Source: Candidatus Bathyarchaeota archaeon (GTDB lineage Archaea > Thermoproteota > Bathyarchaeia > Bathyarchaeales > Bathycorpusculaceae). From it: DNA of 64,000 nucleotides. The position numbers and the translations under genes are program-made. The stretch lies in contig CAVTBV010000005.1 in NCBI GenBank assembly GCA_963733095.1, forward strand, positions 1 to 64,000, given 5' to 3'. Below, piece by piece: positions 57,686-63,107 of this stretch (position 1 is its first letter; each line of letters begins with the position of its first letter). The notes beneath the pieces were generated by a model. It was not told the DNA's origin. It saw nothing but the letters and a program-made list of their open reading frames with translations, and searched no databases.

Positions 57686-57878
57686 TTTTCAAAAACACCT
57701 TCAAGTTTTCGCTACTTGGATTGAAATATATTGCTCTGGTCAGGTTATTAAAAATGTGTTGCAGTCGTTGTACTACAACAAAAGCATATAAGCTCTAACA
57801 AGGCGCAAGAAAAACTCTGCCTTAAGCATACAAAGTGTTATTTAGCAGTTGGCGGCTTCTTGTTTTTGGGTACGCACT

Positions 57879-58799
57879 TTGGAGTTCAAGGGAAGAGACA
57901 TAATATCAATCGAGGATTTCTCGCAACAAGAAATTAACCATATCCTTGACGTTAGCAAAACCATGGAGCCGCTTGCTAAGACAGGCTCAGACATGTTGAA
58001 GGGTAAAATCCTCGCGACCTTGTTCTTTGAACCGAGCACGCGTACTAGGTTGAGTTTTGAAGCAGCTATGCTGAAGCTGGGTGGCTCCAACATAGGCTTT
58101 GCTGAACCAGAAATAACCTCTGTTCGTAAGGGAGAAACCCTCGCTGATACCATTCGTACGGTGGAAAATTACGTTGATGTTATTGCTCTTAGGCACAATT
58201 TGGAGGGCTCGGCAAAATTGGCGGCGGAACTATCGAAGGTTCCCATAATCAACGGCGGTACAGGTGCTCAAGAGCATCCGACGCAAGCCTTCACCGACCT
58301 CTACACGATGCGCAAGGAGAAGGGCAAGATTGACGGGTTAAAAGTGGCGTTAGTAGGCGATTTACGGTATGGACGAACAGTACACTCGCTTGCCTACGCG
58401 CTCGCGCTCTACAATGTAGAGTTGTTCCTTGTCTCACCGGAAACCCTGCGGATAAGAAAAGATGTACTGCAAACAATCAAAAACAAAATTCCAGTAACAG
58501 AAAACGCAAACCTCGAAACCATAATCCCCCAAATCGACGTCCTCTACATCACCCGTATCCAAAAAGAACGCTTCCCAGACGCATCAGAATACGCCAAAGT
58601 CAAAGGTGCCTACAAAATCGATTTAAAAACCCTCAAAGGCGCCAAGAAAGACATGATAATTCTGCATCCGCTGCCTCGCGTGGACGAAATTGCGGCGGAA
58701 GTGGATGTGACGCCGCAGGCACGGTATTTCCAACAGGTCTGGAATGGCATCGTTGTACGGATGGCCTTGCTCTCCTTAGTGCTTGGTGCGGTTAAATAA
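57879..58799 (+). CDS. pyrB: Aspartate carbamoyltransferase
   Basis: FEPSTRT, HPTQ, HPLPR. Confidence 0.97.
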   Translation: MEFKGRDIISIEDFSQQEINHILDVSKTMEPLAKTGSDMLKGKILATLFFEPSTRTRLSFEAAMLKLGGSNIGFAEPEITSVRKGETLADTIRTVENYVDVIALRHNLEGSAKLAAELSKVPIINGGTGAQEHPTQAFTDLYTMRKEKGKIDGLKVALVGDLRYGRTVHSLAYALALYNVELFLVSPETLRIRKDVLQTIKNKIPVTENANLETIIPQIDVLYITRIQKERFPDASEYAKVKGAYKIDLKTLKGAKKDMIILHPLPRVDEIAAEVDVTPQARYFQQVWNGIVVRMALLSLVLGAVK

Positions 58800-61016
58800 T
58801 CAAGTTGATGTGAACCGGTCGAAGGTTGTTAGTGTGCTCATGGAGCCGCAGCTAGGGCATTTGTGGAGGGTTCCAAACCAGTTTTGGCGGCAATTGTCGC
58901 AGAAGCTTATGAGGCGGTTGTAGGTGAAGAATTCTATAGATTGGTTCTCCATTAGGCGTAGTGTTAGGTTCATGAGGGTTTCGGGTTTGTATTCGGCACT
59001 TTCCAATTCGATTATGCCAAGGTTTCCGCCAGCGTTCAACCCCTTCCACCTCAAAGCGGTCTCAAGCATCTCAGTTTGAATGCTGAGGAGTCCCGCATCT
59101 TTAACTCGGAACCGTCTAGCAGTTGAATAGAACGGTTTATCCCTAGTTCCCGAAAACTTTACTTTAGCAACACCGTACCTTTCAATGTCCAGTTGCGCAA
59201 GCCGTTCGGAAGCTTCAGCACTGCCGAGGATGATTGGGTATAGGCGTTTGCCGTATCTTCTGCCAATTTTCTGTTTAAAAGCCAAAAGGTTCTCGATTGT
59301 TTCTTCAGCCATTTTTCGGCTTTCCTCTGAGTTGATGCTTTTTTCGGTGAAGGCTTCTATGGCTTCGCGGAACCCCGCCAAGTTGATAATACGCGAGCAG
59401 TTTTCAAGCCGAAAGTATGTGTCACGATCAGCCTTTTGAAGCAGAAATGGCAGAGAATTCTTTCCAAACTGCTTGAGCGCACTGTTCTTTATACCTAACG
59501 CTCGGGCTGCGAGTTCTAAGCGTTCGCGCATTAAATCGATAAACTTGTTTTTGTCCTTCTCACATTCCAATACAATTCTGGGCAAGTTGAGGGTTACGCA
59601 TCCCAAAGAACCCGTACGCAACGTATCGGTTTCCCAGTCGCCTGTTAAATCCACTGAGAATTTTACTCCTGAAGACGAAAAAGCAGCATTTTCATTTTCT
59701 TTTTTTGTCATGTTGGCGAAGTATGTTATTCCACTTTTCGATGCCAACTGGTGGGCTTTAAGCAGAACAGCCTTTGCGTTCTCTTCTGCTAAGGCTTCAC
59801 TGTTGATTTTAATAACCAATTTTGGACTAAGCAGCGGTTTGCATGTGCTTTCTTCAGCAAAAACATCTATGATAAGTGAAGCTATTAGCTGGCTTTCCTG
59901 GGTATAGTCGCCGTAAATGCCCTTTGTTTTGCCTTTTGGTCCGATGGCGTCTTTTTCTGCGGTTAACTTCGGAATAGAAAGGTCAAGCCCCAATGTGGCT
60001 TCAGCGTGCTGGTTGAGGTTTTGTATGAATAACCGTAGGTTTTCTTTAATTTTTGCAACTTCGTTGCCTCTGACGTAGGGTGCGAGGAAGACGTTGAAGT
60101 AGTTATAGGTTTGTGTGCGGTTGGTTTCTTTGCTGGCGTGCAAGAGTACGTTGAAGGCGGTGGATAGGGCAGATTTGAGGTCGCTGGGTGCTTCCATCGC
60201 AGTTTGGAGTGGATTGTCGAGTTTTACGCCGTGTTGAAAGAAGTATCGTAGATCGTGGATGACTTCGTTGGGTTTCAGGATCCATGTGCCTAAGCTGTCA
60301 ATGTGGATCGCACCTGATAGGTGGGCGTCGGCTATGTCTCGTGGGAAAATGTTAAGCAAAGTGTATTCACCAAGGACTACTTGGCCTGCCTTGCTAATCG
60401 TGGCTTCGCAGTCTTGCGACGAGTCCTTGGTTTCGACAAGAGCGGCTACCTCATGGATTGGCATACCTACGCGTGTGAGTTTATTACGGTAATCTTCATA
60501 ACCCTTCTCCACAAGAATGCCGTTTACAACTTCCCTGATTAAAGAAGCCGTAAGATACTTTGGTTTAGATTTGACAAGACGCTTCTCAGCTTCTTTAGCT
60601 GCCTTCTGCGCCAGCTCAGCCGGCACCTTTGCCTCTCTGATTAGCGAGTTGGCAATTTTGTTAACATCAAATTCCTCCACCGTCAAATGCGAGGTGCGAA
60701 CCAGCATACCCCGCGGCTTAACCGCCTTCTTTTCAACGCGGTCAGCTACGTCAAGAACCATCTTGCCAAGATCGGTAAGAAAATATTTTTTTGCTTCAAC
60801 GTCCGCCTCAACCAAATCCGCCTTCAAGAGGAATTTTAGGTGGTAAGCGAATCTGCCTGCATCTCGGCTGGGATTCATTTTAAGTTGGTTCATCAGTTCA
60901 CTGTAGGAGAGGGCGCTTTTGTCGAAGAGTAAATTGAGAATTTGCAGCCTAAGCGGTGACGAAACGGCTTTTAAAACTTTGACGCCGCGTGCACGAAGCG
61001 GAGGCTGATTAACCAT
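58800..61016 (-). CDS. ArsR-type wHTH + ATP-cone + degenerate class III RNR fusion
   Basis: N-terminal wHTH, ATP cone, AHLSGAIHI, TLNLPR, Zn ribbon; catalytic Cys and glycyl-radical motif absent. Confidence 0.88.
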   Translation of the reverse strand: MVNQPPLRARGVKVLKAVSSPLRLQILNLLFDKSALSYSELMNQLKMNPSRDAGRFAYHLKFLLKADLVEADVEAKKYFLTDLGKMVLDVADRVEKKAVKPRGMLVRTSHLTVEEFDVNKIANSLIREAKVPAELAQKAAKEAEKRLVKSKPKYLTASLIREVVNGILVEKGYEDYRNKLTRVGMPIHEVAALVETKDSSQDCEATISKAGQVVLGEYTLLNIFPRDIADAHLSGAIHIDSLGTWILKPNEVIHDLRYFFQHGVKLDNPLQTAMEAPSDLKSALSTAFNVLLHASKETNRTQTYNYFNVFLAPYVRGNEVAKIKENLRLFIQNLNQHAEATLGLDLSIPKLTAEKDAIGPKGKTKGIYGDYTQESQLIASLIIDVFAEESTCKPLLSPKLVIKINSEALAEENAKAVLLKAHQLASKSGITYFANMTKKENENAAFSSSGVKFSVDLTGDWETDTLRTGSLGCVTLNLPRIVLECEKDKNKFIDLMRERLELAARALGIKNSALKQFGKNSLPFLLQKADRDTYFRLENCSRIINLAGFREAIEAFTEKSINSEESRKMAEETIENLLAFKQKIGRRYGKRLYPIILGSAEASERLAQLDIERYGVAKVKFSGTRDKPFYSTARRFRVKDAGLLSIQTEMLETALRWKGLNAGGNLGIIELESAEYKPETLMNLTLRLMENQSIEFFTYNRLISFCDNCRQNWFGTLHKCPSCGSMSTLTTFDRFTST

Positions 61017-61114
61017 ACACTTTTCTCTCCCGAAACCCCAAACTTGATGGTGCTCTACATATTATTCGAGATATCGTTTAAACTTAACTAAAAAAGTTCC
61101 CTACTATGTCTTGC

Positions 61115-62167
61115 CTAACTTTTATCCGTGGGTTGCTGTTGACTAATACAGTGGATAGTGCCAAAACCATAAACCAGGTCAGCACAACGTATTCCGACCA
61201 CTTTCCGCGTTGGGAACTGTTCCTGCAGAATAGCAAGCGCTTTCACATCGTTTTCGTGGTCAAAAATCGGAACTAGAACCTTTTCGTTGCCGATGTAAAA
61301 GTTTGTGTAGCTTGCGGGAAGGCGGTATCCTTCGTCGCTGACTACTTTGGGCATGGGCAGCTTTACGATTTTTAGTTTTTTGCCATCTTGGTCCGTTGAT
61401 TGATTGAGGATTTCATAGTTTTCTTTTAAAACTTGGTAGTCGTCGTCGTTTTCGTCTTCTTGGTAGGCGCAGACAACGGTTGTAGGGTTGACGAATCGGG
61501 CTAAATCGTCGATGTGGCCGTCAGTGTCGTCGCCTAGAATTCCACATTTAAGCCAGATAAAATGTTTTACTCCAAGGTAATCGGAGAGGTATTTTTCGAT
61601 TTGTTTCTGGTCTAGGTTTGGGTTTCGGTTCTTGTTGAGAAGGCACTGCGCAGTCGTGAGCAAGGTTCCTTTGCCGTTAACGTCAATTGAGCCGCCCTCA
61701 AGCACGATGCCGGGCTTGAAACACCGCAGACCCATCGTTTGGTTGATGAAATCTGGAACCTGTTTGTCCTTTAGGAGGGTCTCATATTTTTCGCCCCAAG
61801 AGTTAAAGTTCCAATGCAACATAGCCAAATCATGGTTTGGGCTCTTGACAAATATAGGACCATAATCCCTAAACCAAACATCAGCGTAACCGAAAATGAA
61901 AAATGTAACTTTGGACGGGTCGATGTTTGCTTCTTTGAACATTTGGGTTGCTTTTTGTTTTGTCTGTTCATCTTTCACAAAGAGGTTAACGCGTTCGCCT
62001 TCATGGATTTCCTTGACAATCTGTACGTAGGTCTCTTCTACCTTTTCAACGCGGTCGGGGAAAGTCGTTGGATCGTAAGGCCATGCTAGCCAGATGGCGT
62101 CGTGTTTTTGCCATTCCGCAGGCATAATGTAGCCTTGTTCACGACAGGTTTTAGCCTGACTACTCAC
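61115..62167 (-). CDS. aguA: Agmatine deiminase
   Basis: MPAEW, WFRDYGP, LEGGS, DTDGHID, GTIHCISQQ; start probably GTG 62167. Confidence 0.95.
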   Translation of the reverse strand: MSSQAKTCREQGYIMPAEWQKHDAIWLAWPYDPTTFPDRVEKVEETYVQIVKEIHEGERVNLFVKDEQTKQKATQMFKEANIDPSKVTFFIFGYADVWFRDYGPIFVKSPNHDLAMLHWNFNSWGEKYETLLKDKQVPDFINQTMGLRCFKPGIVLEGGSIDVNGKGTLLTTAQCLLNKNRNPNLDQKQIEKYLSDYLGVKHFIWLKCGILGDDTDGHIDDLARFVNPTTVVCAYQEDENDDDYQVLKENYEILNQSTDQDGKKLKIVKLPMPKVVSDEGYRLPASYTNFYIGNEKVLVPIFDHENDVKALAILQEQFPTRKVVGIRCADLVYGFGTIHCISQQQPTDKS

Positions 62168-63107
62168 TGCTTGCGCCTCCGTTTTTAGCTTCTGTGATGA
62201 GCTTGTATGTGTTGGGGCAACGGTTCCTAAGAAAACCCCATCCATCCTTAATTCGCTTATTCTTGCTTAAGTCAACTTGCACGATTACAACTTCTTCTTT
62301 TGTGGTGCTTGCTTCCGCGAGAACTTTACCAAATGAGTCACATACAAATGAGCCGCCCCAAAACTCCAATTCACCTTCCACACCCACGCGATTAACTGCG
62401 GCAACGTGAACTCCATTAGCTATAGCGTGGGCACGTTGAACTGTTTTCCAAGCGTCATACCAATCACCATCTTCAGAAGTGTAACCGCATACATAACCAA
62501 TCGCTGTAGGATAGAAGATGATTTCTGCGCCCTTTAACGCGTTAATTCGGGCAGGTTCAGGGAACCATTGGTCATAGCAAATAAGCACACCGATGCACCC
62601 AAAGGTAGTCTCAAAAACTCTGTAGTCGGAGTTTCCCTCTGCGAAATAGTCTTTTTCGTAGAAGTAGGGGTCTTGGGGTATGTGGGCTTTACGGTAAGTG
62701 CCAATGATTTGGCCGCTTGGGTTGATTACGGCGGCTGAGTTGTAGAATTTGCCGTTTTGAGCTTTTTCAAATAGGGGCGCGATGATGACCACTTTGTGTT
62801 TCTTTGCCAGTTTTGAAAACAGGTTTGTGGATTCTCCAGGAATCGACTCCGCTAAATAACGAACGTCTTGGTTCTCTCTTTGTGGAAAATAGGTTGTCCG
62901 GTATAGTTCTTGGAGACATACTATTTGGGCACCTTTCTGTGCGGCTTCCTCAATTTTTTCCGCGATTTTTTTCATGTTTTCAGTTACATTTTCTGCGACT
63001 GATGTTTGGATAAGCCCAATCGTGACTGTTTTTTCAGTTGCCTTCTTTGTTGCAGATGTCTGGTCGGGTTTGTCGGCGGGTATCTGGTTATCCATCCTTG
63101 TTTTCAA
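62160..63107 (-). CDS. aguB: Nitrilase-family amidase, likely N-carbamoylputrescine amidase
   Basis: LQEL, YRKAHIP, ICYDQWFPE triad; adjacent to aguA. Confidence 0.9.
   Translation of the reverse strand: MKTRMDNQIPADKPDQTSATKKATEKTVTIGLIQTSVAENVTENMKKIAEKIEEAAQKGAQIVCLQELYRTTYFPQRENQDVRYLAESIPGESTNLFSKLAKKHKVVIIAPLFEKAQNGKFYNSAAVINPSGQIIGTYRKAHIPQDPYFYEKDYFAEGNSDYRVFETTFGCIGVLICYDQWFPEPARINALKGAEIIFYPTAIGYVCGYTSEDGDWYDAWKTVQRAHAIANGVHVAAVNRVGVEGELEFWGGSFVCDSFGKVLAEASTTKEEVVIVQVDLSKNKRIKDGWGFLRNRCPNTYKLITEAKNGGASSE

Follow-up and report, generated by a model that had tools for sequence, protein, structure and literature searches.

We describe here a gene of a Candidatus Bathyarchaeota archaeon (assembly GCA_963733095.1, contig CAVTBV010000005.1) that encodes a catalytically dead relative of the class III ribonucleotide reductase (RNR) NrdD, fused to an N-terminal DNA-binding domain. 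It lies at 58800..61016 on the minus strand of the window, by which we mean the whole 64,000-nucleotide stretch analysed (positions 1-64,000 of the forward strand of the contig). The view that the product is a repurposed regulatory pseudo-reductase is well supported by the comparative evidence, and the protein is probably a nucleotide-sensing transcription regulator of the supply of deoxyribonucleoside triphosphates (dNTPs), built from a duplicated class III RNR. We consider this role probable because relatives of the gene sit right in front of working RNR genes, and it further draws on the fact that these RNR genes belong to two classes, on a near-invariant recognition helix and on the conservation of an ATP-cone. 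The parts of the gene are the following:

58800..61016, minus strand: whole open reading frame (ORF), with winged helix-turn-helix (wHTH), ATP-cone, catalytically dead NrdD-like barrel and Zn ribbon; 738 amino acids (aa) plus stop codon
60753..60977, minus strand: ArsR-type winged helix-turn-helix, residues 14-88 (Pfam HTH_5, 30.2 bits; DUF7347, 32.7 bits)
60489..60704, minus strand: ATP-cone, residues 105-176 (Pfam, 29.5 bits against a cut-off of 25.8; same span in the genome scan)
60405..60488, minus strand: linker from ATP-cone to barrel, residues 177-204, with invariant R182, G184 and P186
58917..60404, minus strand: NrdD-like ten-stranded barrel minus the active-site residues, residues 205-700 (Pfam NRDD, AlphaFold2 and Foldseek, column comparison)
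60264..60266, minus strand: codon of E251 at the conserved top-face cysteine position (T4 Cys79), in the motif P249-N250-E251
59661..59681, minus strand: finger-loop remnant F446-S-S-S-G-V-K452, at the place of the M-(G/C)-C-R that bears the thiyl-radical cysteine in active NrdDs
58848..58901, minus strand: Zn ribbon, C706-x2-C709 ... C720-x2-C723, its four cysteines kept in 87-88% of 69 family representatives
58800..58847, minus strand: tail of fifteen residues and stop codon, the glycyl-radical domain being absent

The frame is free of internal stop codons. Its N-terminal ~75 residues exceed the HTH_5 cut-off (30.2 against 22 bits), and the AlphaFold2 model shows the helix-helix-helix-strand-strand order of the ArsR/SmtB winged helix at residues 7-80. 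Pfam NRDD covers residues 205-734 with 218.5 bits, and the AlphaFold2 model (built on 73 family sequences; mean pLDDT 87.8, pTM 0.79, low confidence limited to the N-terminus and hinge residues 99-102) contains the ten-stranded alpha/beta barrel of the RNR and glycyl-radical-enzyme type. All top Foldseek matches are class III RNRs, namely 9d3x, 8p2s, 4coj and 1h79, the reductases of S. thermophilus, P. copri, T. maritima and phage T4 (E 6e-26 to 1e-19; TM-scores of 0.6-0.74, target-normalised on core-only chains), and class I reductases and pyruvate formate-lyase-like enzymes rank far lower. The NCBIfam NrdD model TIGR02487 gives 237.6 bits, under its cut-off of 326.35, and in the genome scan Pfam NRDD scores 650.4 bits for the real NrdD as opposed to 219.7 for this gene.

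The catalytic columns were compared with those of the organism's own active NrdD (P0002), T4 NrdD and ten active relatives. For the family itself, an exhaustive search of 50%-identity representatives gave 1649 matches, 318 of them at E<=1e-30; 95 of the best 150 (560-1000 aa) were kept, the other 55 being fragments or longer than 1000 aa, and were aligned with P0001 and P0002, and 69 of them have the winged-helix region aligned. None of these 69 carries a cysteine at the first-strand position held by E251, as against ten of ten active relatives. S447-S448-S449-G450 align with the finger loop, and a cysteine in either of its columns is present in 2 of the 69 family members but again in all ten relatives. 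The C-terminus (...TFDRFTST) lies 15 residues past the second CxxC of the Zn ribbon and is without RxxGY; a glycine-tyrosine pair occupies the aligned glycyl site in a single one of the 69, and the full catalytic triad in none. A degenerate glycyl-domain remnant of 21-60 residues persists in 36 of 60 family members, and in the remaining 24, the window protein among these, the domain is deleted. No stop-free RxxG[YF] was found in the three minus-strand frames of 58200-59000, where the sole pattern match contains a stop; the DNA downstream of the stop codon is the antisense of pyrB. Nor does a gene for the radical-SAM activase NrdG lie beside the dead gene; an NrdG-like gene adjoins the real nrdD on contig C13. 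Judged by these columns, the protein cannot perform glycyl-radical chemistry.

The losses extend beyond the radical residues. The ten active relatives conserve 91 barrel and tail columns to at least 90%; of these, 17 are still kept by at least 80% of family members, and 34 are lost, being kept by less than 20%. When the lost columns are mapped on P. copri NrdD by profile alignment and read with the accessible text of PMC11226230, both the P-A-E loop, in which a glutamate links the substrate to the glycyl loop, and the second half of H-I-H-D, the motif in contact with the phosphates of the substrate, turn out to be among them. Residues that active NrdDs conserve before loop 2, near the specificity site, are mostly lost as well; this statement is the weakest part of the mapping, because the P. 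copri PDB numbering is offset by four from that of the available text and its Glu290 did not map cleanly.

The gene is not decaying but conserved under strong purifying selection. A word-indexed search scored 7999 candidates, of which 1494 proteins reached E<=0.001; the best 120 of the 1494 are 75-93% identical, almost all 734-747 aa long and of the same Pfam architecture, and are labelled by their sources as Bathyarchaeia and as 'anaerobic ribonucleoside-triphosphate reductase' or 'ArsR family transcriptional regulator'. The gene is found in 40 of 41 genomes of the order (the genome without it is 65% complete), a full-length match including the winged-helix region in 135 of 301 sampled genomes of the phylum, and Promethearchaeota also appear among the source labels of family members. 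All twelve orthologues from the genus have an open frame and the same C-terminal end, and their median dN/dS is 0.050 (42 usable of 66 pairs); the domains taken singly have 0.030 (wHTH), 0.054 (cone), 0.061 (barrel) and 0.065 (ribbon plus tail). Where Pfam was consulted it confirmed the winged helix in five of five family representatives and returned none in seven of seven other representatives, which have a second ATP-cone or nothing in its place.

Conservation is unevenly spread over the protein. The ATP-cone with its linker is the best-conserved part (conservation of at least 90% within the family at 28 of 87 positions), as compared with 10 of 79 positions in the wHTH and 9 of 496 in the barrel. 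Within the wHTH the recognition helix G54-(K/R)55-F56-A57-Y58-H59-L60 is nearly invariant across 62 diverse family rows (G54 in 60, F56 in 60, Y58 in 61, H59 in 62). The cone opens with V106-R107-T108-S109 instead of the canonical V-x-K-R; T108 is found in 83% and S109 in 97% of the family, and at the positions of the K-R pair the active archaeal NrdD relatives have T in 7 of 10 and S in 6 of 10, so that V-R-T-S, being common to related active NrdDs, is inherited rather than decayed. The barrel retains a handful of residues that are conserved both in the family and in active NrdDs: H232 (90%), G235 (100%), N477 (100%), R480 (90%), E551 (90%), R605 (93%), D610 (94%) and Y630 (94%). A putative DNA-reading helix, cone and linker that are conserved, together with a barrel that has been stripped of ligand-contact residues yet stays under selection, are in keeping with a transcription regulator that senses nucleotides.

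A FastTree tree of the barrel places 12 active sequences and 11 inactive forms on one side of a branch with SH-like support of 100 and the winged-helix family on the other. This is compatible with a single origin of the family but does not prove it, because the tree has no root and its active members were chosen for their similarity to the query. The 11 inactive forms (P0192, P0194, P0199, P0223, P0229, P0243, P0249, P0251, P0254, P0263 and P0270) are NrdD-like proteins without the catalytic triad, none of them scored as carrying a winged-helix region; P0192 and P0251, the two of them checked with Pfam, have two ATP-cones. All 11 nest among active NrdDs and may be independent cases of dead reductases. 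Within the winged-helix family, the members L115 and L118 end ahead of the Zn ribbon, at 655 and 659 aa, and the ribbon is therefore dispensable in some lineages. One genome of the genus carries, at G004:C4:3071-5286, a second dead copy with several stop codons that adjoins the intact one and is a local duplication in decay.

The preliminary description of this DNA had read from the letters alone an intact 738-aa ORF with wHTH, ATP-cone, NrdD-like barrel and Zn ribbon, PNE in place of PNC, FSSSG at the finger loop and an end in FDRFTST without the glycyl-radical motif. Domain profiles, model fold and alignment with active NrdDs bear out this reading throughout. Of the checks it had proposed beyond that alignment, the search for a separate intact RNR led to an nrdR-nrdD-nrdG operon on contig C13, and dN/dS across orthologues gave the low values reported above. 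It had also named two observations that would speak against a dead enzyme, orthologues that retain the Cys and Gly motifs and a frameshift restoring RxxGY: no family representative has the full triad, and the downstream frames as well as the common end of the twelve orthologues rule out the latter. The convergence on pyrB that it had noticed is real and, as described next, widely conserved.

The role in dNTP supply is argued from the company the gene keeps. Its downstream neighbour in the window is

57849..58799, plus strand: pyrB (aspartate carbamoyltransferase catalytic chain), convergent, its last base abutting the stop codon of the dead nrdD

and pyrB-like sequence adjoins the gene in 12 of 12 loci of the genus, in pieces in one of them (L015 of G004). 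Outside the genus, 8 of 16 genomes, from other families of the order, have an active nrdD whose product ends in RITGY or RVTGY directly downstream on the same strand; these eight loci were fetched since the table showed a second NrdD-like match adjacent. A small glutaredoxin-like ORF (identified by eye) stands between the two genes in four of the eight, and a convergent pyrB, often with pyrI, follows in five. A scan with the Nitrososphaerales member P0200 gave 34 loci with names such as Nitrososphaerales, Nitrosopumilales, Nitrososphaeraceae and Nitrososphaera sp. AFS. Here the directly downstream, same-strand neighbour is the class II gene nrdJ (Pfam Ribonuc_red_lgN/lgC, in most cases together with TSCPD; one has an intein and one an ATP-cone) in 17 of the 22 loci with at least 1 kb of downstream sequence, the other 12 ending within 600 bp and being uninformative on the neighbour; beyond nrdJ, pyrB again converges. 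About ten of the Nitrososphaeraceae contigs (among L042-L057) end 340-560 bp downstream of the gene, as though hard-to-assemble DNA follows.

The same arrangement recurs in f18, a Nitrososphaeria-like family with proteins 49-55% identical to those of the named Nitrososphaeria loci and with numerous complete ~1.6-Mb genomes: 43 of 43 genomes have the gene, and 18 of the 20 loci that were fetched carry nrdJ directly downstream. As most of the 43 match the family profile just once at E<=1e-30, no active NrdD was found there. The commonest layout is thus regulator, then RNR of whichever class, then convergent pyrB. It looks like the ancestral order, from which the RNR would have been lost from the middle in the genus of the window organism, and with the RNR gone from its slot the dead gene abuts pyrB. 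That the gene precedes RNR genes with two unrelated kinds of radical chemistry speaks for control of the gene and not for a partnership with the enzyme.

In the window genome the working reductase is encoded elsewhere, by three genes in a row, nrdR (149 aa), nrdD (708 aa) and an NrdG-like radical-SAM gene:

G000 contig C13, locus L001, 698-1147, 1144-3270 and 3287-3964: nrdR-nrdD-nrdG operon

Its NrdR consists of Zn ribbon and ATP-cone, the only TIGR00244 match in the genome being C13:102290-102712, and its NrdD has an MCCR finger loop and RVVGY and is 28% identical to the dead protein. No class I or II RNR barrel was found in the genome, which is 95% complete. NrdR scores over the cut-off in 26 of 41 related genomes, 24 of 25 within the genus (the window genome counted) and 2 of 16 outside it, which suggests that the nrdR-nrdD-nrdG operon replaced the native neighbouring nrdD. 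In the two outside-genus genomes the nrdR-linked active nrdD lies on another contig than the dead gene, at least one of the contigs being short. A bacterial origin of the operon we infer only, because a homologue search with the active NrdD returned, among the 120 matches listed, relatives of 93-96% identity only.

Alignment of the nrdR upstream regions from 12 genus genomes (L089-L100; G000:C13:101790-102310) revealed a TATA box followed by inverted repeats (TAGTGT(GT)AG ... about 13 nt ... ACACTA), which we take to resemble NrdR boxes. The palindrome GCTTGCGCAAGC also sits upstream of nrdR; a conserved palindrome around TTGCGCAA is placed ~235 nt ahead of that gene, at a distance of 58 nt from a divergent cupin-like one. 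In the genome TTGCGCAA is present 48 times, for the most part within coding sequence, with no regulon pattern. An additional ATP-cone (35.5 bits) is found in a 280-aa ORF on G000 contig C9 (L005:1492-2334, plus strand), which also has an AF1548-like C-terminal domain and is neither an RNR nor an NrdR.

The dead gene appears to have a promoter of its own:

61048..61090, minus strand: putative promoter region with the BRE/TATA-like TAGTTAAGTTTAAAC, then a conserved block over the expected transcription start

In the alignment this region is conserved in 12 of 12 genus orthologues regardless of the upstream gene. At the mismatch levels tried, each of the two blocks has a single occurrence in the 2.84-Mb genome, and therefore no regulon is derivable from them; two weaker look-alikes on C13 fall within a coding region. 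Searches across lineages were likewise without a clear operator. Exact inverted-repeat dyads (half-sites of 4-5 nt, spacers of 0-14) in 16 lineage groups were shared by two groups at best, which equals the reversed-sequence control, and 6- to 8-mers common to the RNR-upstream regions of 12 lineage groups were only A/T-rich promoter words, again as in the control. Single lineages offer candidate leads. Inspection by eye shows two blocks common to the bathyarchaeial nrdD promoters: one is a TACA-N-(A/T)-rich TATA block, and the other contains palindromes of the TACA(AG)...(CT)TGTA type, the spacing of which varies. Upstream of the TATA box of nrdJ in f18 (L101-L120) is a conserved ~40-nt element with an ATGAA-N-TTCAT palindrome and CGGTGT; exact ATGAANTTCATAG is present at nrdJ in five of five f18 genomes searched, and one more exact site occurs in four of the five, inside coding sequence in three of those. 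In f18, too, the density of GATC upstream of nrdJ and of the dead gene is 2.3-2.8 times that of flanking coding sequence, and the sites are often in a 10-11 nt phase; phased GATC triplets are rare genome-wide and cluster upstream of the dead gene in 2 of 5 f18 genomes. The window's gene has neither the ~40-nt element nor phased GATC nor the bathyarchaeial nrdD palindromes.

Taken together, we envisage that the N-terminal winged helix binds DNA, that the ATP-cone, inherited from the parent NrdD, would report the adenine (deoxy)nucleotide state, and that the dead barrel and Zn ribbon would serve as a scaffold for dimerisation and signal relay and not as a second ligand site. The ancestral target would be the reductase gene just downstream, nrdD in Bathyarchaeia and nrdJ in Nitrososphaeria. 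In the genus of the window organism, from whose locus the RNR has been lost, the regulator must then act in trans, possibly on nrdR-nrdD-nrdG or on other genes of nucleotide metabolism. In a wider form, for which we see about even chances, the family would be a widespread archaeal master regulator of dNTP supply made by killing an RNR, the counterpart of NrdR in bacteria; its winged helix would read the promoter of whichever RNR is used, its cone would sense dATP/ATP and the dead NrdD dimer would transmit the signal. The range of such a regulator, put forward with the same reserve, would comprise Bathyarchaeia, Nitrososphaeria including the aerobic ammonia oxidisers and, by source labels, Asgard archaea.

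Several observations weigh against a regulator of dNTP supply. Gene order is circumstantial, and related genomes are non-independent observations. In the window genome the gene adjoins no RNR gene at all, and the nrdR-nrdD-nrdG operon there has its own NrdR and box-like inverted repeats, so that a second RNR regulator is not obviously needed. A soil metagenome scan yielded 28 further loci, at about 33% identity, none of which has an RNR beside the gene, and 17 of which have a convergent pyrB. The cone is without the canonical K-R pair and its Pfam score is just over the cut-off, and binding of ATP or dATP is consequently not assured. Operator searches by dyads and k-mers in the promoters of many lineages did not rise above the reversed-sequence control. 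Finally, the dN/dS estimates were made near saturation of dS (median 1.2-1.6), and 24 of the 66 pairs were dropped.

Could the protein then be a transcription regulator whose regulon is not mainly made of RNR genes but of genes for pyrimidine and nucleotide synthesis (pyrB/pyrI) or for replication and the cell cycle? We hold this to be unlikely, though of the alternatives it is the one with most in its favour. Convergent pyrB is the most widely kept neighbour, present in all 12 genus loci, in 17 of the 28 RNR-less soil loci, where a membrane-protein gene or nothing lies between the two genes, and beyond the RNR in most other lineages. The genus has moreover retained the gene after the departure of the adjacent nrdD and the takeover by an operon under NrdR control, and in two metagenome-assembled genomes of Nitrososphaeraceae (L046 and L049) a Snf7-family (CdvB-like cell-division) gene lies directly upstream of it. 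On the other hand, only the 3' ends of pyrB and the dead gene meet, and they therefore have no shared promoter; a same-strand position directly upstream of two RNR classes is more specific than convergence on pyrB. The preliminary description had left open whether the protein is a repurposed transcription factor or a regulatory RNR subunit. The comparative context favours the former, and the latter is disfavoured, as the gene is also kept in genomes in which class II nrdJ is the sole RNR gene beside it and no active NrdD was found. A non-catalytic partner that binds active RNR, as in a heterodimer with NrdD, or replication proteins, with the winged helix used for protein contacts or tethering, seems to us more doubtful still. 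Such a partner would account for the retained NrdD fold, Zn ribbon and ATP-cone-to-barrel linker, the last of which relays allosteric signals in real NrdDs (accessible text of PMC11226230). It does not sit well with the f18 genomes, where mostly a single profile match and no active NrdD were found and the neighbour encodes a class II enzyme, nor with an active NrdD in the window genome that is just 28% identical, with a near-invariant recognition helix as expected of a DNA reader, or with the loss of most residues of the specificity-site region.

That the protein is still an enzyme, one that performs non-radical chemistry on a nucleotide-like substrate and uses its helix-turn-helix (HTH) for autoregulation as trigger enzymes do, strikes us as improbable. 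The eight barrel residues that remain conserved in common with active NrdDs speak for it, but they are also found in active enzymes and may be structural; barrel positions conserved to at least 90% number just 9 of 496, the substrate-phosphate motif and the PAE loop, as defined in the available part of the P. copri NrdD paper, are gone, and no new conserved cluster of Cys, His or acidic residues was seen. A decaying pseudogene, or a real nrdD disfigured by assembly or frameshift errors, would find some backing in the public labels of an anaerobic ribonucleoside-triphosphate reductase and in the stop-ridden second copy of G004; the intact frame and identical end of 12 of 12 genus orthologues, a dN/dS of 0.05, homologues of nearly constant length and the lack of a glycyl motif in any downstream frame leave it with hardly any credibility, and we regard it as refuted by the conservation data.

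As a regulator of dNTP supply, the dead NrdD would be a functional counterpart of NrdR, which is usually a single-purpose regulator. NrdR (TIGR00244; PMC9110341, PMC12176259) likewise has a DNA-binding module followed by an ATP-cone and is encoded by a gene linked to RNR genes. The two proteins are homologous in the cone only: the DNA module of NrdR is a Zn ribbon (PF22811) and not an ArsR-type winged helix, the dead NrdD has no TIGR00244 match, its cone starts with V-R-T-S where NrdR has the canonical basic pair, and its 738 aa include a whole dead barrel, as compared with the about 150 aa of NrdR. NrdR also uses paired palindromic boxes over the start of RNR promoters, and nothing NrdR-box-like was found at the promoter of the dead gene. 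The evolutionary parent is NrdD itself (T4 1H78, T. maritima 4COI, P. copri 8P23, S. thermophilus 9D3X), with which the protein has in common the barrel fold, the Zn ribbon, the N-terminal ATP-cone, the linker motif and strands such as (V/I)xLNLPRI. It differs from it in lacking the top-face Cys, the thiyl Cys, the glycyl-radical domain and the HIHD and PAE motifs (the latter two as described in the available text on P. copri NrdD), in its sub-cut-off NCBIfam score, in having no adjoining NrdG and in the extra winged helix at its N-terminus. This winged helix matches the ArsR/SmtB group (HTH_5), its likeness to HlyU (4K2E) in the PDB being weak (E 0.009) and its score against the NCBIfam metalloregulator model NF033788 being 32.1 bits for a cut-off of 55; the proposed sensor is the ATP-cone and not a metal site as in ArsR/SmtB. 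The trigger enzymes PutA, BirA and NadR couple an enzyme scaffold to a DNA-binding domain and so link metabolite state to transcription, but they keep catalysis, whereas the catalytic apparatus is gone in every member of the present family that was examined.

Transcriptional control of RNR is not known in most archaea, where NrdR is stated to be rare (PMC9110341, in its accessible text). If our interpretation is correct, the family offers a directly testable candidate for an archaeal dNTP regulator and would be a plain example of an essential radical enzyme that was put to new use as the scaffold of a sensor; should any of the organisms with complete ~1.6-Mb f18 genomes be cultured, it would be a source of both protein and promoter DNA. 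What is new in the window genome is that the putative regulator shares the genome with a bacterial-type, NrdR-controlled nrdD operon, having lost its neighbouring target and yet being kept under strong selection. Databases label the family as active 'anaerobic ribonucleoside-triphosphate reductase', and metabolic reconstructions would be mis-scored as a consequence, for example by crediting aerobic ammonia oxidisers with an anaerobic route to dNTPs. An inactive NrdD fused to an HTH was not found described in the full-text literature searched, a scope that excludes supplements, subscription journals and arCOG/COG notes, nor in the accessible parts of the Burnim 2022 preprint, Lundin 2015 and 2010, RNRdb 2009, the NrdR paper of 2022 and the P. 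copri NrdD paper of 2024; an earlier note on such a protein may exist, for instance in the arCOG annotations.

On the far side of the dead gene, at 61115-63107 on the minus strand of the window, genes for an agmatine deiminase (PAD_porph) and a carbon-nitrogen hydrolase lie upstream on the same strand and resemble a putrescine-synthesis pair. This neighbourhood is not conserved, 5 of the 12 genus loci having other DNA upstream.

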